Origin: Desulfobacterales bacterium | Lineage (GTDB): Bacteria > Desulfobacterota > Desulfobacteria > Desulfobacterales > UBA5852 | Length of the DNA stretch: 64,000 nucleotides | Reading direction: 5' to 3' | Assembly: GCA_963674755.2 (NCBI GenBank) | Contig: CAXXVS010000003.1 | Span: 1,216,001 to 1,280,000, forward strand | Program-made: the position numbers and the translations under genes | Shown: positions 1-11,350 of the stretch, in pieces | Layout: each line of letters starts with the position of its first letter | How positions within the stretch are numbered: the stretch's first letter is position 1 | Notes under the pieces: generated by a model | What the model was told of the DNA's origin: nothing | Seen by the model: the letters and a program-made list of their open reading frames with translations, nothing else | Databases searched by the model: none

Positions 1-1
1 C

Positions 2-868
2 ATGGCCGCCTCGCGTGCGCCGGCCGCGGCCTGGCAGTCCCGGGCCCCGGCCGATGCCTTCGGCTGTCTCGTGGATCTGACCCGCTGCATCGGCTGCCGC
101 AAATGCGAACAGGCCTGCCAGACGGTCAACAGCCTGCCGGAGCCCGAACAGTCCTTCGACGACCTGACGGTCCTGGACCGCAAGCGCCGTCCGGACGACA
201 AGAGCTTTACGGTGGTCAACCGCTACTATTCCGGCAAGATCGACGAACGCGACCAGCTCGTCCCCACCTTCGTCAAAATCCAGTGCATGCACTGCCAGGA
301 TCCGGCCTGTGCCTCGGCCTGCATCGTGGGGGCCCTCACCAAAAAAGAAAACGGCGCCGTCCACTACGACGCCGGCAAATGCATCGGCTGTCGCTATTGC
401 ATGGTGGCCTGCCCCTTCGAGATCCCGGCCTACGAGTACCACAACCCCATCACGCCTCGGGTAATGAAGTGCACCTTCTGCTACGAGCGGGTCGCCGAGG
501 AAGGCAAGCTGCCCGGCTGCGCCCAGATCTGCCCGGTGGAGGCTATCACCTTCGGCAAGCGGGCCGACCTGCTCAAACTGGGCCGCCAGCGCATCAAAGA
601 CAATCCAGGGCGCTACATCGATCACATCTACGGCGAAAACGAGGTCGGCGGCACGAGCTGGATGTACATCTCCGACCGGCCTTTTAAGGAGCTCGGGTTT
701 ATCGATGTGCCGGAAAAGCCTTTGCCGCAGCTGGCGGAAACCATCCAGCACTCCCTGTTCAGTTATCTCTGGTCCCCCATCGTCCTGTTCGCCATGCTGG
801 GCGGCGTCATGTGGGGCTTCCGGGATAAAGGCGACCGTCATGACGAGAACCAAGGAGGGAACCCATGA
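2..868 (+). CDS. 4Fe-4S dicluster protein (HybA/NrfC/HmcB-like); 5' end probably outside the window
   Basis: [37 protein letters not shown] and [13 protein letters not shown] motifs; [17 protein letters not shown]-terminal TM helix. Confidence 0.9.
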
Positions 869-2070
869 GCCATTCCCCAAGCCCGATGCGGACCAAGTTC
901 TGGACGCCCGGGGTCGTTACCCTGGCCTTTCTGATGGCCGCCGGGGCCGCGGCCATCGTGGCCCGCTACACCGGTGGCATCGGTTATGTCACCAACCTGA
1001 CCAATGCCCGGCCCTGGGGCCTGTGGATCGGGGTCGACGTGGCTTCGGGGGTGGCCCTGGCCGCCGGCGGTTTCACCACGGCCTTCCTGGCCCACATCGT
1101 AAGCCGCCACTATTACGAACCGGTGGTGCGCCCGGCCCTGCTGACTGCCATGCTGGGCTACACCTTCGTCGTGCTGGGGCTGCTGGTGGACATCGGCCGC
1201 TCCTGGGCCATCTGGAAACCCCTGGTCTACTGGAATCCCAATTCGGTGCTCTTCGAGGTGGCCATGTGCGTCATGTTCTACCTCAACGTGCTCTACCTTG
1301 AATTCGTGCCCATCGTGGTGGCGCAGTACAAGGGACGGGTCAACCTGCCGGGGCCGCTGGCCGCCCTCAATGCGCCGCTGGAAGGCCTCCTCAAGGTGCT
1401 CGATGTGATCACCGGTAAGCTGATGTGGGCCTTCATTATCGCCGGAGTGGTGCTCTCCTGCATGCACCAGTCCAGCCTGGGCTCCCTCATGCTGATCGCC
1501 CCCACCAAGCTGCACCCCCTCTGGTATACGCCCATCCTGCCGCTGCTCTTTCTCACATCCGCCATTGCGGTGGGCTACCCCATGGTGGTCTTCGAAACCA
1601 CCCTGGTCACCTCATCCCTTAAGCTGGACCCGGAGATGCACATTCTCTCCCCCCTGATCCGCTTTACCGTCTTCCTGCTGGGGCTCTACCTGGCCCTGAA
1701 GATTGGCGACATGGGGGTGCGCGGCACCTACGTCTACCTGCTGGACGGCACGGCCCAGACCAACAGTTTCCTGGTGGAGCTCGTCTGCGGCGTGATCGTG
1801 CCCTGGGTCATGCTCCTGCTGCCCAAGGTGCGCCAGTCCCGCCGGGGCCTTTTCATCGCCTGCACCCTGATCGTGGGGGGTGTCCTCCTGAACCGCGTCA
1901 ATGTCTTCGTGGTGGGCTACCGTCCGCCCATCAGCGAGGCCAACTACGCCCCGGCTCTGCCGGAAATCATGATCACCGTCGGCCTCATCGCAGGCCTGAT
2001 GTTCCTCTATCGTTTTCTTGTGACCTATCTGCCGGTGTTGAACCGACCGGAACAGGAGGTGTCGGCATGA
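865..2070 (+). CDS. NrfD/PsrC-family quinol-interacting membrane subunit (HybB/HmcC-like)
   Basis: [37 protein letters not shown] and KLHPLW motifs; about 10 hydrophobic segments; ATGA overlap with the upstream gene. Confidence 0.9.
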
Positions 2071-4184
2071 TCAACAAGTCATCTATCATTTTAGGGGTAA
2101 TACTCCTGGCGGGAATCAGCGGCGGACTGGTCGCACTCCCCCCGGTAGGCCCGGGAAGCGATGCGGTCTATGCCGCCGCAGCCCCGGAAACCGCCGCCAA
2201 GGAGACCCCGGCTGCCAAATGGTCGGCGCCGGACCAGGTGGCCGCCCTGGAACGGGCCCGGGAGACCCTGCCCTTCGTGGAAGCCGTCAAGGATGAGTGC
2301 AAGCTCTGCCGCCAGATGCGGCTGCGGGAGATGGGGCTTGGCACCAAGGACATCACCCACAACTACGTCGTCCTCAACAGCCCCATCATCAACACGGAGG
2401 AAGATCATTACGGACCGGTGCGCTTCATGCACGGCAAACACGCCTCCCAGATCCAGGACTGCGCGGTCTGCCACCACTACCGACCCCTGGCGGAAGACGC
2501 CAGCGAAACCACCCGCTGCTCGGCCTGCCACCAGGAAGCGTTTCGCCAGGACCATCCGGAGCGCATCGGGTTGAAGGCCGCCTATCACCAGCAGTGCATG
2601 GAATGCCATCGGGAGATGAACCAGGGCCCGGTGGACTGTATTGGCTGCCACGACAAGAACGCCCCCGACCACAAGGACAAAATCCAGTTGACCGCCGACG
2701 CGACCCCTTTCCAGGTGACCGCTGAGTGTCTGCGCTGCCACAAGGAGGCCGGCCAGGACATGCTGCAAACCGCCCACTGGAAGCTCAAGGGGCCGTCGCC
2801 TTATACTCTGGGCCACAGAAAGGAGGTCGAAATCGGGAAAAGCACCATTGCCACGAACAACTTCTGAATGAGCATCGCCAGCAACGAGGCTCGTTGCACC
2901 AGTTGTCACGTCGGCTATGGATGGAAAGATGCTTCTTTTGACCTCACGGATATGAGCAAGATCGATTGCCTGGTGTGTCACGACACCACCGGCACCTATA
3001 AAAAAGTCCCCACCGGCGCCGGTATGCCCGATCCGGAAGTGGATCTGGTGGCGGTGGCCAAAGCGGTGGGACCCACTTCCCGCAAAACCTGCGGAACCTG
3101 CCACTTCAACGGCGGCGGCGGCGAAGCGGTCAAACATGCCGATCTCTCCCGCCAGTTGTTGACGCCGGACCGCAATTGCGATGTGCATATGGGCGGCTAT
3201 GATTTCCAATGCACCGAGTGCCATCGCACCCGCAACCATAAAATCGCCGGACGCAGTTCTTCGGTTGCGGTGGTTGAAAGCAGTTTTTCCTGCGAAAACT
3301 GCCATACGGCCAATCCCCACCGGGGGGACGGTCTGCTGGACCATCATTTGAACAAGCACAGCCAAACCATCGCCTGCAACACCTGTCATTCCCCGGTCTA
3401 CGCCAAATGCAAGCCCACCAAGGTGTTCTGGGACTGGTCCAAGGCCGGAGACGTGGACCGCAAGCCCCAGAAGGACAAATACGGCATGCCGGACTATAAC
3501 TGGAAAAAAGGGGAATTCCGCTGGCAGGAATCCGCCAAACCCGTCTATGCCTGGGACAGCGGCTTCACCCAGCGCGTGCTGATCGGTGACAAGACGGATT
3601 GGCGAAAAGGGCCGATCAACATCTCCGAACCGGTCGGATCCATCAAGGACCCCAACTCCAAGATCGCGCCTTTCAAGATCATGAAGGGCATCCAGGCCGT
3701 GGACGCCGAATACGACTACCTGCTCGTGCCCCATCTGTTCCCACGGAACAAGGAGGACAAGACCGCCTACTGGAAGAACCGTGACTGGCAGAAATCTTTC
3801 GCGGACGGGATGAAGGCCGCCGGCTTGAAGTACAGCGGCACGTACGAATGGGCCACCTCCCAGATGTATTGGCGGGTGGAGCACGAAGTCATGCCGGCCG
3901 ACATGGCCCTCTCCTGTGTTCAGTGCCATGCCAGTCTGCAGTCCGAGGAGCGCACCTGCGACCGCTGCCACCAGGACAACCGCGCGGTGAATTTCAAAAA
4001 AATCGCCCACAAGGGAACCGACTTCAGCTACATGGCCTCCAAGGGGCGCGATGTGAGCCACCTCATCGGCACCACGGACTATATTGACTTCAAGGCCCTG
4101 GGCTACAAGGGCGACCCCATCATCTATGGCGGCCGCTTCAAGAAGCTGCCCATGGGGTACAAGGCCGAAGCGGAAAGAGAGTAG
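2067..4184 (+). CDS. 13-heme c-type cytochrome (c3-like tetraheme domain fused to an octaheme tetrathionate reductase-like domain); probable selenoprotein, TGA 2865-2867 read as Sec, 705 aa
   Basis: ORFs 2067..2867 and 2868..4184 are in frame and read ..TNNF-TGA-MSIASNEARCTSCH.., matching the OTR-family NNFC..SNxxRCTSCH motif; 13 CxxCH; signal peptide only on the first part; hairpin after the TGA. Confidence 0.85.
2881..2897 (+). promoter_or_regulatory. Putative bacterial SECIS hairpin
   Basis: GCAACGA-GGC-TCGTTGC: 7-bp perfect stem, loop starts with G, 20 nt after the in-frame TGA. Confidence 0.75.
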
Positions 4185-4248
4185 CCGGTCTCCGGTTTGG
4201 ATTTTCACCACCATCAAAAAGCTGCCGGGGACCTATGTTATAGATTTA

Positions 4249-4794: not shown

Positions 4795-6441
4795 TTACCA
4801 GTCAGGCCATTGCCAATCCCGGCGATCCTTCTCGTCAGCAGGCGACTCCAGCCCCTGAGGATCCAGCAGGTCGCCCCAGTTGGTACGCTCGATCATTTGG
4901 TTGCGGTTTGCGGCCGAAAGCGGGTCTTCGCCCTCCCTGATTTGCCAGCCTCCCCCCAGGGCCTTGTAGGTGGCCACCAGATTTGTGCTCACCTGGCCGC
5001 TCACGTCGGTCAAAAGATCTTCCTGGGTGACCAGGAACCGCAGGGAGTCCAATACGCGCTGGTAGTCAGCGACCCCTTCGCGATATTGCACCAGCGATAA
5101 TTCCACCGATCGGCGGGCGGCCGCGACGCTGTCTTTCAGGAACCACTCTTCTTCCTTGGACCGCGTATACGCTACCAGTGCATCCTCGACTTCCCGTTGG
5201 GCGTTCAGCACCGTATTGCGGTAATTGACCACAAGCGCCTGAAGGCGCGCATCCTCGACCCGCACACGGTTGCGGATGCGCCCGTAATTCAGAATATCCC
5301 AGCTGAAACCGGGACCGGCGGTCCAGAACATACTGTTATGGTCGAACAAATCTCCCAGATCACGGTCGCCGGAGGCGGAACTGGCATCGGTCGAGCTCCA
5401 TCCAATGCTTCCGGCCAGGTAAAAATGCGGATACAGGTCGGCCTTGGCGATCCCGATCTGAGGGCTCTGGGCGGCGATGCGCAGCTCGTTGAGCCGAATG
5501 TCGGGTCGACGTCGGAGAAGATTGTTGGGGATGTCGATAACGACGGCCTCCGCGGCTACCGGAATCTTTGCCGGCCCATCCAACACGTCCTTCAGTTCCC
5601 CCGGCAGCACCCCCAGCAGGATGGCCATAGCGTTGCGGGCTTGGCGCAGGCCGATCTCCAAGCGGGGAATCGAGGCCTGGGTGTTGCGCAGCAACGTCCT
5701 GGCCTGGGTCACATCCAACTCCGAAACGGCGCCCTCCTTGAATCGGACTTTGGCAATCTGCAGTGATTGCTCCTGCGCCTTCACGTTCTGGCCGGCGATC
5801 ACCAGGCGTTTCTGCAAGGTGCGGATGACGATGTAGGTGCGCGCAACTTCCGCCGTCAGCGAGACGAGCAGGTCGTCATAGCTGGCGACCGTGGCCTCCA
5901 GGTTGGCGGTGCCGGATTGCACCGAACGGCGGAACTTGCCCCAGACGTCCAACTCCCAGGCCGCATCGAACCCCAGGCTAAGGGCATTGAAATGATCGTC
6001 GTAAATAGGGCTGTCGCCACCGGTGCTGAGTTTGTTGTTGGTGAGATCTCCGCCGGCCGACTGCTGCTGTGGGTACAGGGTGCCAATCGCAATCCCCAGC
6101 TGGGCGCGCGCTTCATAAATGCGGATGCCCGCGATCTGCAAGGAAAGATTCTGCCGATAGGCCTTTTCAATCAGGGTGTCGAGCACGGGATCGTCAAACA
6201 CCCGCCACCAGTCGCCATAGTCGGCCTTACCGACCCTCAGGCCGGGCGCCCGGGCCTCCGCCCAGTCTTTCAGCAGCGGCGCCTCCGGTTTGACAAAATC
6301 CGGTCCGACCATGGTGCAGCCGCTCATGATCAACACCATGGCAACTCCCGCCAGCCACAAAGACATCGTTGGTTGGGGCCGTCTCGCCAAGCGCCCTGTC
6401 CGGTCTTGATCGGTTAGCGCATCGCCTGTGCCTGTATCCAT
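4795..6441 (-). CDS. RND efflux outer membrane lipoprotein (OprM/NodT family)
   Basis: Lipobox MSGC followed by VGPDF; WWRVFDDPVL, WELDVWG, LLRRRPDI and YKALGGGW motifs; true start may be slightly downstream. Confidence 0.92.
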   Translation of the reverse strand: MDTGTGDALTDQDRTGRLARRPQPTMSLWLAGVAMVLIMSGCTMVGPDFVKPEAPLLKDWAEARAPGLRVGKADYGDWWRVFDDPVLDTLIEKAYRQNLSLQIAGIRIYEARAQLGIAIGTLYPQQQSAGGDLTNNKLSTGGDSPIYDDHFNALSLGFDAAWELDVWGKFRRSVQSGTANLEATVASYDDLLVSLTAEVARTYIVIRTLQKRLVIAGQNVKAQEQSLQIAKVRFKEGAVSELDVTQARTLLRNTQASIPRLEIGLRQARNAMAILLGVLPGELKDVLDGPAKIPVAAEAVVIDIPNNLLRRRPDIRLNELRIAAQSPQIGIAKADLYPHFYLAGSIGWSSTDASSASGDRDLGDLFDHNSMFWTAGPGFSWDILNYGRIRNRVRVEDARLQALVVNYRNTVLNAQREVEDALVAYTRSKEEEWFLKDSVAAARRSVELSLVQYREGVADYQRVLDSLRFLVTQEDLLTDVSGQVSTNLVATYKALGGGWQIREGEDPLSAANRNQMIERTNWGDLLDPQGLESPADEKDRRDWQWPDW

Positions 6442-6522
6442 AGTGCGTTCCCCTTTATAACCTGCCGATCCTGAATGGTGTCCGCATCTCGTGGCGTCCT
6501 TCTCGTGCGGTTGTGTCGGGGG

Positions 6523-9500
6523 TCAGCCAGAGACATGGTCGACCGGCGGCTTGACCCGGAAAAAGACACTGTAGAGAGCTGGAACAAAGTTGAGCGTAAA
6601 CATGCTGCCGATACCCAGGCCGAAGAACATGATGCACGCCATCCCATAGAAGAGGGGGTCGTGATTGATGATCAACGGCGTGAACCCCAGCATGGTGGTT
6701 GAAACCGAAAGCAGGATGGGCCTGAATCGGCTGACCGCCGAATTGACCACCGCATCGTAGGGCGTCTGCCCCTCGCGCCGGTTTTCCTCGATTTTATCGA
6801 TCATCACGATACCGTTGTTCACGATGGATCCGGCCAGGGCCAACAGCCCGAGGATGACCATAAACCCGAAATCGGCCTGCATCACCAACAGGCCCACTAC
6901 GGACCCCACGACGACCAGGGGCATGGTCAGGATGATGATGGCGGCCCTACGGATGGAGTTGAACTGCCATACCAGCAGGAAGATAATGCCGCCAAAGCAT
7001 GGCAGCAGCCATTTGGCGAGGTTCTTCTGGGCCTTGGCGGAGTCTTCCAATTCGCCGCCCACCTCCCACTTGTAATTTTTGGGGAACGTCATCCCGGCCA
7101 GGGTAGGTTGCAGGGCGGCAAAGATCTCGGAGGCCTTCAATACCTGGTTTTTGGCGCTGACGGTGATGGTGCGCTCCTGATTGTAGCGCACGATCCGGTT
7201 CAGCTCGCCTACGACATACACATTCGTCACCTGGCTGAGCGGCACGCTGCCTCCGTTTGACGAACGGATGCCGAGCGTGCGCAGGCTTTCGGGAGAATCC
7301 CTTTCCGCCTTGACGCCGCGCCCGACGATGGGGATTTGAACATTGCCTGTGTGGTACGTGGTCGCCGTCACGCCGTCCACAAAGAAATCCAGGGTATCGG
7401 CCACATCCTTCGATGTCACCCCGGCACGCAGGGCGCGGGTCTGATCGACATCCGCCTTGACCGCAATCACCCGGTTGTTCCAATCCTGCTTGATGTCCAT
7501 GGTGCCGGGGATGTTGCGCAGCCCGGCCATCAACTGCGCGGCCTGCTCCTCCAGCACGGCGGTATCGGGACCGCTCAGCCGGATTTCCATCAGGCCGGTT
7601 TCGCTGCCGCCCAGCCACATGGGTTTAACCCGGCCGCGGACGTTGGGGAAATGATCGTTCAGGTATTCGCTGGTGCGTTGGACGAGTTCGGGCACCTCTT
7701 TGTTGGTCTGGGTGTTGACGATCAAAAACCCGACGAAGGGATCCGGGTCCAACGGCGACAGGGAGAGGAAGAAGCGCGGCCCGCCGTTGCCCACATAGGC
7801 GATCGTACTGGTGATTTCGGGGTTGGCCTGCTTGTCCTGCAGCCAGGCGCTGACTTCTCTTACGGTCCGGTCGGTTTCCGCGATGGCCGTGCCGGCCGGC
7901 AGGTCGAGATAGATCAAATACTGGTTGCGGTCCCCGCTCGGGAAAAAGGCCTGGGGGATAAACGTGGCCGCATACAATGCGGCCGCAAACGCGCCCCCCG
8001 CAAGGGCCAGCACCAGCACCCGATTGCGCAGGGAAAAATGCAGGACCTTGCGGTAGATCCCATAGAATTTCCCTTGGTAGGGATCGCGCGCCTGTTTCTG
8101 ATCACCGCGGCCGGCCGGTTCGGTCTTTAAAAACCAGTAGCACATGCTGGTGGAGGAGAACATGGAGAGGAACCAGGACCCCATGAGCAGAATGATCATC
8201 ACCGACCCCAGCGAGGAGGTGTAATCCCCGGTGGAACCGATTTGCAGCAGAATCGGTCCGAAGGCGAACACCGTCGTCAGCGTGCTGGTGAGCAGCGGGA
8301 CGGAAAGGGAGCTGCCGGTCTTCAAAACGGCCTCCCTGCGCGCCAGACCCCTTTCCATATTGACTTTAATATCGTCGGAGACCACGATGGCGTTGTCCAC
8401 GAACATCCCCAGGGCAATGATCATCGTGGCCAGCGACATGCGCTCCAGATCGATGCCCAGCGCCTGCATCGCCACGAGACCGAAAAGCATGACCAGGGGG
8501 ATGAACGAGCCGACGATCAATCCGGTTCTAAGCCCCAGCAGCAGCATGACCACCACCAGGACGATGGCCACGCTTTCGATCACGTTGATCACCATGCCGT
8601 TGACGGCCTTGTTGATGAGTTCCGGCTGGTAGGTCGCGAATTCGAGCACATAGCCCCACGGCAGGGACTGCTCCAACGCATGCACTTCCTTCTGCAGCCG
8701 CTCGCCGAACGCCACGGCATCGACCCCCCGGAGGATAAAGACGCTCAGGACGATGGCCTGGTGCCCATTGTAGTAGGCCGGATTGTTGATGGGCTCCACG
8801 TAAGCTTTGCGGACGGTGGCGATATCCCTCAGCGGAATCGAGGCCCGGGTGCCGGAAATCGGGATCAGAACCTCTTCGATCTCCTCGATGGACGTGAACC
8901 GGCCTTCGGTTTCCACGATCAATTCCACATCGTCGATGTCGATCCGGCCGCCGGGCAAAAGGATGTTCTGGGCCCGCAAACTTTTCCCGATATCGGCGGG
9001 ATCGATTCCCAGCTGCGCCATCTTGGCGTTGGACACCTCGAGATAGATGCGCTCGTCCTGCACGCCGGTCAGATCGACCTTCTGGATGCCCTTCAGCAGG
9101 TTGAGGCGCTCTCTGATCTGCCGGGCGGTTTCTTGCATTTCCGCCATGCTGAAGCCATCGCTCCACAGGGCGATGGTGGCCACCGACGTATCGCCGAAGG
9201 TATCGTTGACCATCGGTCCGACAGTGCCTTCCGGCAGTTCGGGTTTGACATCGTTCATCCGGTTGCGCAGCAGTTTCCATGTCGCCGGGAGCTGTTCGGC
9301 GGGCACTTCATCCTTGATGGTCACATGGATCAGGCATTCGCCGACCTTGGAGGTGGAATTCCTGATCTTGTCCACTTCGCCCATGCTCCGGATCTGCTCT
9401 TCGATGGGCCGGGTGATCAGGCGTTCCACCTGTTCCACGGGCATGCCCGGATTTTTTGCAACCACCACTGCCTCGCGGATCGTAATGAAGGGGTCCTCCA

Positions 9501-9606
9501 GTTTCGGGAGGTTTATAAATGCATACACGCCTCCCACGACGAGCAGCACCATCGACATGATGACGGTTCGCGAGTTGTTCAGAGCAAATGCGGTGATTCC
9601 CTTCAT
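6523..9606 (-). CDS. RND transporter permease (AcrB/AcrD/AcrF family)
   Basis: 1027 aa; GMFVDNAIVV and SRFRPILL motifs; two TM clusters. Confidence 0.93.
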   Translation of the reverse strand: MKGITAFALNNSRTVIMSMVLLVVGGVYAFINLPKLEDPFITIREAVVVAKNPGMPVEQVERLITRPIEEQIRSMGEVDKIRNSTSKVGECLIHVTIKDEVPAEQLPATWKLLRNRMNDVKPELPEGTVGPMVNDTFGDTSVATIALWSDGFSMAEMQETARQIRERLNLLKGIQKVDLTGVQDERIYLEVSNAKMAQLGIDPADIGKSLRAQNILLPGGRIDIDDVELIVETEGRFTSIEEIEEVLIPISGTRASIPLRDIATVRKAYVEPINNPAYYNGHQAIVLSVFILRGVDAVAFGERLQKEVHALEQSLPWGYVLEFATYQPELINKAVNGMVINVIESVAIVLVVVMLLLGLRTGLIVGSFIPLVMLFGLVAMQALGIDLERMSLATMIIALGMFVDNAIVVSDDIKVNMERGLARREAVLKTGSSLSVPLLTSTLTTVFAFGPILLQIGSTGDYTSSLGSVMIILLMGSWFLSMFSSTSMCYWFLKTEPAGRGDQKQARDPYQGKFYGIYRKVLHFSLRNRVLVLALAGGAFAAALYAATFIPQAFFPSGDRNQYLIYLDLPAGTAIAETDRTVREVSAWLQDKQANPEITSTIAYVGNGGPRFFLSLSPLDPDPFVGFLIVNTQTNKEVPELVQRTSEYLNDHFPNVRGRVKPMWLGGSETGLMEIRLSGPDTAVLEEQAAQLMAGLRNIPGTMDIKQDWNNRVIAVKADVDQTRALRAGVTSKDVADTLDFFVDGVTATTYHTGNVQIPIVGRGVKAERDSPESLRTLGIRSSNGGSVPLSQVTNVYVVGELNRIVRYNQERTITVSAKNQVLKASEIFAALQPTLAGMTFPKNYKWEVGGELEDSAKAQKNLAKWLLPCFGGIIFLLVWQFNSIRRAAIIILTMPLVVVGSVVGLLVMQADFGFMVILGLLALAGSIVNNGIVMIDKIEENRREGQTPYDAVVNSAVSRFRPILLSVSTTMLGFTPLIINHDPLFYGMACIMFFGLGIGSMFTLNFVPALYSVFFRVKPPVDHVSG

Positions 9607-9750
9607 AATGGCTTCCTTCAGTTCCGCAGGGTAATGATGATCGGGCCGAGACCGCCGGAATACGTGGTGTCGGAATCGCCAACACCTTTGAATGTGGGCG
9701 GTTGGAGGGGGCCCAAGGGTGCCGACGGGCGGATGAATCCCAGCGACCCT

Positions 9751-10839
9751 TTACGGCTGCAGCAGTTTGACTTTCATTCCATCGGCCAGAAAACTCACAC
9801 CGGCCACGGCAATGATGTTTCCCGGTTCAAGACCTTCGGTTGCAACGGCATTTTTTCCCTGCAGGCTGCCGAAGCGGACCCTCGTCTTTTTGACCGTGGA
9901 TGTCTGGGGGTCATAAACGAAGGCGTACCCCTGGTTCGCTTCCGCGGCGGGCAAAATGGCCTGGAGGGGCAGCGTGTATCCGGGGGGCTGTTTTTTGCCG
10001 GCTATCGTCAGCGTTGCTTCAGCGGTCATGCCGGGCTTGATTTTGGCATTCGGCTCCAGCAGATCCACTTTGACCGGGAAGGCATTGGCCTGGACAGCAG
10101 CAGAACCGATGTAGGCGATACGTCCTTGGACGGACGTGTCCGGCAGTGTGGGGAAGGCGATCGTCGTCGCGTCATCGATGTTAATCTGGTCGATGGTGGT
10201 CTCCGGGACCGCCAACTGGACTTCCATCTTCCCCGAGGCATTGATTTCGAAGATCTTCTGCCCGGTCTGCACCTCCTCGTTCGGCTGCACCGAGCGCCAG
10301 GCGATGGTGCCGTCGTAAGGCGAGAGCAGTTTCGTTTTGCGCAGATTGCGCTCGGCCTGCGCCAGTCGGGCCACCTGATAATCGACCGCACTCTTGGCCG
10401 CTTTGTAATTGTATTCGGCGACATCCAAACGGCTTCTGACCCCCGCCCCCTGATCGAAAATCCGTTTTTCGCGTTCGTACTGGGACTTGGATTCATTGAC
10501 ATAGTCCCTGGCTTTTAGCAGCTCCGCCTGGATCGCACTGACATCGAGCTGATAGGGCTCCGGATCGAGCACGGCAAGGATTTGCCCTTTCGCCACGCGA
10601 TCGCCGATATCGACGGCCACCGACGCCACCTGCCCGCCGACCTGAAAACTGAGGTCGGCGGAATCGACGGCGGCGACAACCGCGGGGAATTTCCGCACCT
10701 GCGCGACCGCCTGCTCACTGACCGTCATGGTCTTGATCGCCCGGACGACATCCACAACCTCGGTTTTTTCTTTGCAGGCCGTCAGGGCGACCGACAGGCA
10801 AAGAAGCCAGACCATTCGCTTTAACGTCTTTTTGGACAT
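9751..10839 (-). CDS. RND periplasmic adaptor (membrane fusion protein), lipoprotein
   Basis: Likely start MSKKTLKR..LTAC; LSFQVGG, SPYDG and KPGMTA motifs. Confidence 0.9.
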   Translation of the reverse strand: MSKKTLKRMVWLLCLSVALTACKEKTEVVDVVRAIKTMTVSEQAVAQVRKFPAVVAAVDSADLSFQVGGQVASVAVDIGDRVAKGQILAVLDPEPYQLDVSAIQAELLKARDYVNESKSQYEREKRIFDQGAGVRSRLDVAEYNYKAAKSAVDYQVARLAQAERNLRKTKLLSPYDGTIAWRSVQPNEEVQTGQKIFEINASGKMEVQLAVPETTIDQINIDDATTIAFPTLPDTSVQGRIAYIGSAAVQANAFPVKVDLLEPNAKIKPGMTAEATLTIAGKKQPPGYTLPLQAILPAAEANQGYAFVYDPQTSTVKKTRVRFGSLQGKNAVATEGLEPGNIIAVAGVSFLADGMKVKLLQP

Positions 10840-11350
10840 CTTAACCCTCGTCTTTATAAAGCAATTGCTGTTATTGGATTCAGGGACGACCCGTCGCCGA
10901 ACAAGGCAAGTCCGGCCACCAAGCCGCCCGCGTCCGTTCACGACACGTAGCGCTTCAGCAAATTCTTCCATTGGGATGATTTCATAAAACCCGGCGGCCC
11001 GTTCATGACCCCCACCCGCAATGGCGGCGACAATGCGGGCGCATCTTGGGGAAACGCCTCTTCCAGGCAAGGCAAAGGAAGCCAGAACCCAGTGAGGCTG
11101 CATAGGATGAGGCGCGTTATCCTGGGTTGCGGTGGCATATGCGGAGTCTCCCAAAAGGGGGCTGTCCAGAAGACGTTACGGTGAAGGTTAATCCAATTAA
11201 TTCCATTGTATTTTACGCCGCGCGTCTGATCCAAATAGCGTTTGACCCGCTCGGCCCAATACTTGAAAGCGTCCCCCGCCGATCCCCACTTCGAGCACCG
11301 TTCGGTGAGGCGGCCGTTTTAGCGTCCTGGCTACCGCGATCCCCCGGCAA

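Follow-up and report, generated by a model that had tools for sequence, protein, structure and literature searches.

Does the single in-frame TGA of a multiheme cytochrome c gene in a Desulfobacterales bacterium mark the end of a broken gene, or is it read as selenocysteine (Sec), and what would the resulting enzyme do? The gene lies at positions 2067-4184 (+) of the 64,000-nucleotide stretch that was analysed (the window; GenBank assembly GCA_963674755.2, contig CAXXVS010000003.1, positions 1,216,001 to 1,280,000 of the forward strand), and the TGA at 2865-2867. The TGA almost certainly specifies Sec, judging from its conservation and from a hairpin downstream of it to which SelB would bind in order to insert the residue at position 267. 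With a probability of roughly 0.6, the product is a 13-heme Sec form of the octaheme tetrathionate reductase (OTR) family, predicted to be periplasmic and fed with quinol electrons through iron-sulfur (FeS) and NrfD-type partners, which probably reduces a compound with a sulfur-sulfur (S-S) bond.

The gene is a single frame from 2067 to 4184, preceded by AGGAGG at 2054-2059 ahead of the ATG at 2067, and its sole internal stop is the TGA, codon 267, in the context NNF-U-MSIASNEARCTSCH. When this codon is read through, a protein of 705 amino acids with 13 CxxCH motifs is obtained, five of them on the N-terminal side of the TGA and eight on the C-terminal side. Standard calling of open reading frames (ORFs) splits it into ORFs of 266 and 438 amino acids. 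Both halves are present as separate entries in public protein collections, where the joined 705-residue sequence (with C in place of U) was not found; an earlier reading of the window made from sequence only (the sequence-only reading), which had picked out one TGA at 2865 and expected annotation to split the gene, was right on both counts. Contigs from four public runs, one of them possibly from the source sample, span positions 2865-2867 with no alternative letter listed, so the TGA is not a sequencing error; these contigs show TGA, not the TGC or TGT that the same reading had named as a refuting observation. In one RNA run 5% of the words were present, and its contigs were those of diverged relatives.

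Homologous loci were collected from 61 related genomes, a scan of a genome collection, a sample of 401 genomes of the phylum and a pattern scan of metagenomes. Before counting, L109-L111 (23-24% identity, TCC misalignments), L112 (22%) and exact duplicates were dropped, as were 51 of the 118 metagenome pattern matches, which had no tblastn match; the 64 metagenome loci kept had been selected by their TGA and were excluded from the ratio of Sec to Cys. Column 267 is TGA in 125 and Cys in 47 of the 172 distinct loci kept, and no other residue occurs there. Among the 108 genome loci not selected by codon, 61 have TGA and 47 have Cys at this column, the alternation that the sequence-only reading had predicted, although such locus counts overstate the statistical weight because kin are not independent. 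In the phylum sample, a single TGA is found in 29 of the 69 TIGR04315 matches above the cut-off, and TAA or TAG in none of them, the position of the codon being checked only for the fetched loci. Both forms occur in cultured strains, with TGA in Desulfosarcina variabilis and Cys in Desulfobacter curvatus, D. vibrioformis and Desulfospira joergensenii. Four 13-heme Sec homologs (L089, L093, L094 and L105) have a frame that ends early past the TGA, by frameshift or assembly error. The genome studied here also holds a second OTR gene (G000:C1:346601-347884, L119), which is of the Cys type, has a cytochrome b partner and lies beside nifU/nifS-like genes.

The TGA is followed at 2881-2897 (+) by a candidate bacterial Sec insertion sequence (bSECIS), the hairpin GCAACGA-GGC-TCGTTGC, with a 7-bp stem and a GGC loop that begins 20 nt downstream of the TGA. 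The codon for the first Cys of the heme-2 motif falls within the 3' arm of the hairpin. The hairpin uses GCT and CGT, two codons that the gene seldom employs (GCT for 4 of its 65 Ala and CGT for 2 of its 34 Arg). Stem, loop, spacing and codon use agree with what the sequence-only reading had described. The hairpin fits the published bSECIS model of a 4-16 bp stem and a 3-9 nt loop with G in its first two positions, placed 16-37 nt after the UGA (PMC13188914, seen in part). For comparison among loci we used a generic test that was not derived from these data (7-bp stem, loop of 3-9 nt, G at loop position 1 or 2, 16-37 nt downstream). It was passed by 123 of the 125 TGA loci and by one of the 47 Cys loci; applied to the codons of this gene, it was passed by 31 of 676, including neighbours of the real hairpin.

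Two hairpin designs, defined post hoc after the data had been seen, account for the TGA loci. In type A (95 loci, this gene among them) the loop lies at +20 and the encoded residues are N-E-A/S/G-R-C; the type-A pattern occurs as a single copy in the genome. In type B (30 loci) the loop lies at +24 and the encoded residues are mostly N-W-C-R/S-C. The 3'-arm codons, which were not used for selection, are CGT in 95 and TGC in 94 of the 95 type-A loci, while nearby His and Tyr codons are split about evenly. At residue +8, 33 of the 47 Cys forms have Pro, whereas every type-A locus has Ala, Ser or Gly there and every type-B locus has Cys; both designs therefore overwrite the same Pro codon before the heme-2 motif. 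One further genome (G053) has a type-A hairpin in its 13-heme gene and a type-B hairpin in a second, divergent octaheme OTR copy, where the context is NDY-U (L116:7628-7630, minus strand).

The predicted product starts with a probable signal peptide of the secretory (Sec) pathway (about residues 1-36, 2067-2174), recognised by eye from the sequence. Residues 113-195 (2403-2651) form a class III (c3-like) tetraheme domain with four CxxCH (PF02085, E 6e-13), which resembles TmcA, HmcA and nonaheme cytochromes. Against the HmcA, TmcA and nonaheme equivalog models the protein reaches 67 of 400, 63 of 114 and 51 of 640 bits, all under the cut-off, the c3 domain being the only common part. The OTR-family octaheme core spans residues 201-623 (2667-3935); it matches the OTR of Shewanella oneidensis (PDB 1sp3) with E 1.4e-112 and scores 493.7 bits against TIGR04315, above the curated cut-off of 375. 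Its eight heme motifs stand in the OTR order and include the catalytic second motif, CTSCH at 2895-2909. Beyond the core, a 13th motif that Shewanella OTR does not have, CDRCH at 3957-3971, is invariant in 16 of 16 full-length 13-heme rows. The proposal of a c3-like tetraheme domain fused to an OTR with one extra heme is thus upheld. A further candidate heme site, CKLCR at residues 78-82, was rejected since the motif is not conserved.

When residues were counted by hand along the alignment with 1sp3, Lys258 (2838-2840) corresponded to Lys56, Sec267 to Cys64 and His281 to His78. Heme 2 of OTR is Lys-ligated (bioRxiv 10.1101/2023.04.20.537704, in part), so Lys258 is the likely ligand of heme 2 here. 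Lys258 and the Cys or Sec at 267 are invariant in all 82 alignment rows, and position 267 is the only invariant Cys outside the CxxCH motifs. A Cys is named among the traits of OTR's catalytic site in one literature passage, part of whose source was available, and we take it to be Cys64; from homology and this passage, residue 267 likely lies near heme 2 in space. An AlphaFold2 (AF2) model of residues 200-705, built without hemes on the alignment of 82 homologs, reached a pLDDT of 88.8, and in a Foldseek search 1sp3 was its sole significant match (E 3.3e-47, TM-score 0.89 on the target, rmsd 2.6), a fold test in which 1sp3 was possibly part of the AF2 training; the single-sequence model of the whole protein had a pLDDT of 32.8. 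Two more residues, Cys371 (3177-3179) and Cys448 (3408-3410), are invariant in the 16 full-length 13-heme rows and missing from Shewanella OTR, and a disulfide between them is possible. The gene product belongs to the OTR family, and all sequence criteria class it as a selenoprotein.

The distribution of the two forms was followed on quick or FastTree trees, all unrooted, in which the site and the next ten residues were masked and from which short or frameshifted rows were dropped. On the FastTree tree of 142 rows, at least nine changes between Sec and Cys are needed. In approximately unbiased (AU) tests on 28 rows, with groups that were picked after earlier trees had been seen, a single clade of all Sec forms was rejected (p 0.0007), as was the exclusion of the Cys-type Desulfobacter and Desulfospira genes from the 13-heme Sec clade (p 2e-42). 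In these nested Cys genes the stem is broken and residue +8 is once more Pro. The only Cys locus that passes the hairpin test, L255, is placed among type-B Sec forms with the type-B stem kept, and it looks like a reversion from Sec to Cys. The scattered pattern may reflect repeated gain, repeated loss or local recombination, which a root would be needed to tell apart.

Three other explanations were weighed against a Sec enzyme that acts on S-S bonds, two of them concerning the decoding of the TGA. If it were a true stop, the gene would be split, or a pseudogene, or the 438-residue ORF would be restarted at ATG 2868, and the presence of an ATG directly after the TGA, like the separate halves in databases, fits this. 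However, every break is a TGA and falls in the one Cys column, and the hairpin accompanies the TGA in 123 of 125 loci. Only 18 of the 95 type-A loci have ATG as the following codon, so no restart is conserved. No Shine-Dalgarno-like sequence was seen ahead of ATG 2868 and the downstream half has no export signal, just as the sequence-only reading had stated for the part with eight CxxCH; a split would also part the Lys ligand from its heme motif. A true stop is therefore hardly credible. On the side of Sec, the genome has the machinery that the same reading called for, selA, selB, selC (tRNA-Sec) and two selD, and selA is present in 12 of the 12 TGA-bearing genomes of the set of relatives. The two selD genes (G000:C1:776949 and G000:C3:2083622) each have an in-frame TGA of their own. 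This genome also encodes in one operon (G000:C1:787861-791366, minus strand; L269, L003, L017) a second tRNA(UCA) and, after it, second copies of a SelB-like gene and of cysteinyl-tRNA synthetase (CysRS). Read by eye, the tRNA has an A1:U72 pair, U73 and an 8-bp acceptor stem, and the operon matches the selC*-selB*-cysS* arrangement reported for Desulfobacterales (PMC5389517, in part). A selC*-type system can put Cys at UGA (PMC11415595, in part), and the UGA could here be read partly or mostly as Cys by such a tRNA(UCA), SelB* and CysRS*, the product being a mix of Cys and Sec forms according to selenium supply. A close match to the tRNA was found in 11 of the 61 genomes searched. Of the 12 genomes in the relatives set with a TGA-OTR, all of which have selA, only three (G000, G010 and G015) gave such a match, so Cys recoding does not explain the pattern in the family. 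Moreover, the second CysRS has 491 residues with a weak CysS_C match (E 6.6e-6), and its C-terminal domain seems partly kept, whereas the published CysRS* has no anticodon-binding domain (the same source, PMC5389517, again in part). We consider it rather improbable that Cys recoding governs this codon, though a selC*-like system may modulate the product in this genome. A third cysS-like gene was seen at C3:2619062, in a frame of 764 amino acids.

The remaining alternative accepts a Sec-OTR and gives it the classical chemistry of a heme iron, that is, detoxification of nitrite or hydroxylamine or reduction of sulfite, Sec then donating a proton or being part of the pocket and not attacking S-S bonds. 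The strongest activities of OTR in vitro are with nitrite and hydroxylamine and a role in sulfite reduction has been suggested from mutants (PMC12949373, in part). The Lys at heme 2 is retained, and one relative (L072) has a NapC/NirT-family gene and a second cytochrome with eight CxxCH downstream. Repeated exchange of Cys and Sec at a single site is, on the other hand, typical of thiol-redox nucleophiles, and a molybdopterin oxidoreductase gene follows L114 and L115 and a rhodanese-domain gene L060, although such neighbours are not conserved. Heme-iron chemistry seems unlikely to us, less so than Cys recoding. Several observations nonetheless count against the Sec enzyme acting on S-S bonds that we prefer. 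For Shewanella OTR, the activity with tetrathionate in vitro is very low next to those with nitrite and hydroxylamine, deletion of otr gave no tetrathionate phenotype, and the function suggested from mutants is sulfite reduction (PMC12949373, in part). The nesting of Cys forms among Sec forms means that selenium is not needed to keep the gene, and the sequence does not settle which way electrons flow. The TusA-fold ORF at the head of the operon (see below) is weak support for sulfur chemistry because it has no CPxP Cys and occurs in only 26 of 39 loci. As for decoding, the 61 nt counted from the TGA show, when folded in isolation, no greater stability than shuffled sequences (z 0.36), and the minimum free energy fold of this 61-mer pairs the 3' arm with bases just past the TGA instead; with so unremarkable a fold, the case for the hairpin rests on conservation and not on folding energy.

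The cytochrome gene is the last of an operon that consists of a TusA-fold ORF, an FeS subunit, an NrfD-type subunit and the cytochrome. The 4Fe-4S subunit (positions 1-868, plus strand; start at L113:11948, 53 nt before the window) has 306 residues and a twin-arginine-like N-terminus and resembles HybA and HmcB (E 4.7e-75 for HybA and 2e-106 for NF045715 HmcB, both under their cut-offs). It is followed at 865-2070 (+) by an integral membrane subunit like NrfD, HybB and HmcC, with a predicted quinol site (Pfam NrfD E 1e-20; HybB E 2e-95 and HmcC E 2e-79, under the cut-offs). The TusA-fold ORF at the operon head, just upstream of the window (L113:11703-11951, plus strand), was found in 26 of 39 related loci; its TusA match is under the cut-off here (E 8e-4) and reaches 1.6e-7 in L075, and the sulfur-carrying Cys of CPxP was not found in its 27 aligned rows. 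A divergent PAS-sigma54 activator gene (L113:10095-11483, minus strand) adjoins the operon. Of the 37 loci for which 5 kb or more of upstream sequence was available, 36 have the FeS and NrfD genes and 35 have the activator. A strict regular expression for the sigma-54 promoter matched upstream in only two of 15 loci, so that a promoter was not established; a GG-N10-GC sigma54-like site was seen before the small ORF, at about L113:11663-11678. In Cys-type relatives (L114:4925-8203, L115:4761-8036 and L037-L042), NrfD, c3 and OTR parts form single chains of about 1,090 residues with 12 CxxCH, the NrfD part being identified in L114 by Pfam, and this fusion supports a physical module. The cytochrome is likely the end enzyme of a membrane-linked respiratory module. 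At the end of the gene, a pattern scan picked up a terminator-like hairpin (4183-4197, plus strand; three found in the region against 0.7 expected). The window also contains an RND-type efflux cluster on the minus strand (4795-11154), with outer-membrane factor, permease and membrane-fusion protein recognised from translations, which looks unrelated.

We propose for this Sec-OTR that, once SelB had read the hairpin and Sec267 had been inserted, the cytochrome would be exported, as its signal-like N-terminus suggests, and matured with 13 hemes. Family knowledge suggests that electrons would probably leave menaquinol at the NrfD-like subunit and travel through the 4Fe-4S subunit, the c3 domain and the OTR chain to the Lys-ligated heme 2. 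There, the selenolate of Sec267 would attack the S-S bond of tetrathionate, polysulfide or thiosulfate, and the Se-S adduct would then be reduced from heme 2, as has been proposed for MccSep. We give this nucleophilic role of Sec267 about an even chance, on the strength of the analogy to MccSep, in which Sec and a heme serve in polysulfide reduction (PMC13510729, in part), and of the 36-fold induction of otr by tetrathionate in a metagenome-assembled genome of a sediment Acidobacteriota (PMC8528874, in part).

A Sec-OTR is not new in kind, being already annotated as a Sec family in GenBank; new here are the two SECIS designs, the repeated switching between Sec and Cys with apparent reversions, and the Cys-recoding alternative. 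The natural exchange of Cys and Sec at one non-heme Cys makes this residue the likely chemical centre. A wider picture, which we put forward tentatively and hold to be less likely than not, is that of a widespread NrfD/FeS/c3-OTR complex in relatives of sulfate reducers that would cleave S-S bonds by means of a Sec beside a Lys-ligated heme; the residue would have been swapped from Cys to Sec several times with two hairpins over the same Pro codon, and cells with selC* might switch the codon between Sec and Cys by selenium supply. If this is true, it would be a second Sec-plus-heme catalyst, independent of MccSep, and the native chemistry of OTR would run through Cys64. The cultured strains with Sec and Cys forms offer a direct test of OTR chemistry. 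About four in ten family members of the phylum sample (29 of 69) carry a TGA and are split in two in protein collections, with the result that surveys of sulfur-cycling genomes count too few of them or label them wrongly. The two designs of hairpin further provide a clean natural case of a SECIS in a coding region that forces an amino-acid change beside a heme motif.

Among the closest known systems are the Sec proteins that GenBank already assigns to TIGR04315. A table in a 2026 review (PMC13188914, in part) lists TIGR04315 as a GenBank-annotated selenoprotein family with WP_331457571.1 as example; compared by this table row alone, these proteins belong to the same family and have one Sec, very likely at the same site. 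The entry is a single row without motif or primary paper, and the 13-heme fusion, the two SECIS designs and the switching between Sec and Cys were not found in the parts of the review that were available. Our literature search, whose coverage left subscription journals outside, turned up no bench work on either a Sec-OTR or the 13-heme complex, and among the papers covered only this review pairs a selenoprotein with TIGR04315; the main text and one supplement of the BSepDB paper (about 4.0 million characters, possibly partial) mention neither tetrathionate nor octaheme. With Shewanella OTR the protein shares the family cut-off, the fold, the eight heme motifs and the Lys56 and Cys64 positions. 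It differs in having Sec in the place of Cys64, in the added c3-like tetraheme domain and 13th motif and in the invariant Cys371 and Cys448, and it has FeS and NrfD-type subunits of its own, whereas CymA is the proposed electron donor of Shewanella OTR (PMC12949373, in part). MccSep of Geobacter sulfurreducens (ExtKL, GSU2937-2936) is likewise a periplasmic multiheme protein with one Sec that is needed for S-S reduction (PMC13510729, in part), and the likeness is one of function. MccSep is a pentaheme protein of family NF040886 with a His/Cys-ligated active heme, as against 13 motifs here; NF040886 was not matched in the NCBIfam scan of this cytochrome, nor was MccSep in sequence or fold searches, in whose libraries the presence of its structure was unchecked. 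The quinone-interacting Hmc (HmcABC) and Hyb-type modules of sulfate reducers and the nonaheme cytochrome resemble the present system in combining an FeS subunit, an NrfD-type subunit and a c3-type multiheme cytochrome in one operon. Yet the subunits found here are below the HmcA, HmcB, HmcC, HybA and HybB cut-offs, and the cytochrome brings to this arrangement a catalytic OTR core, not only a carrier domain.

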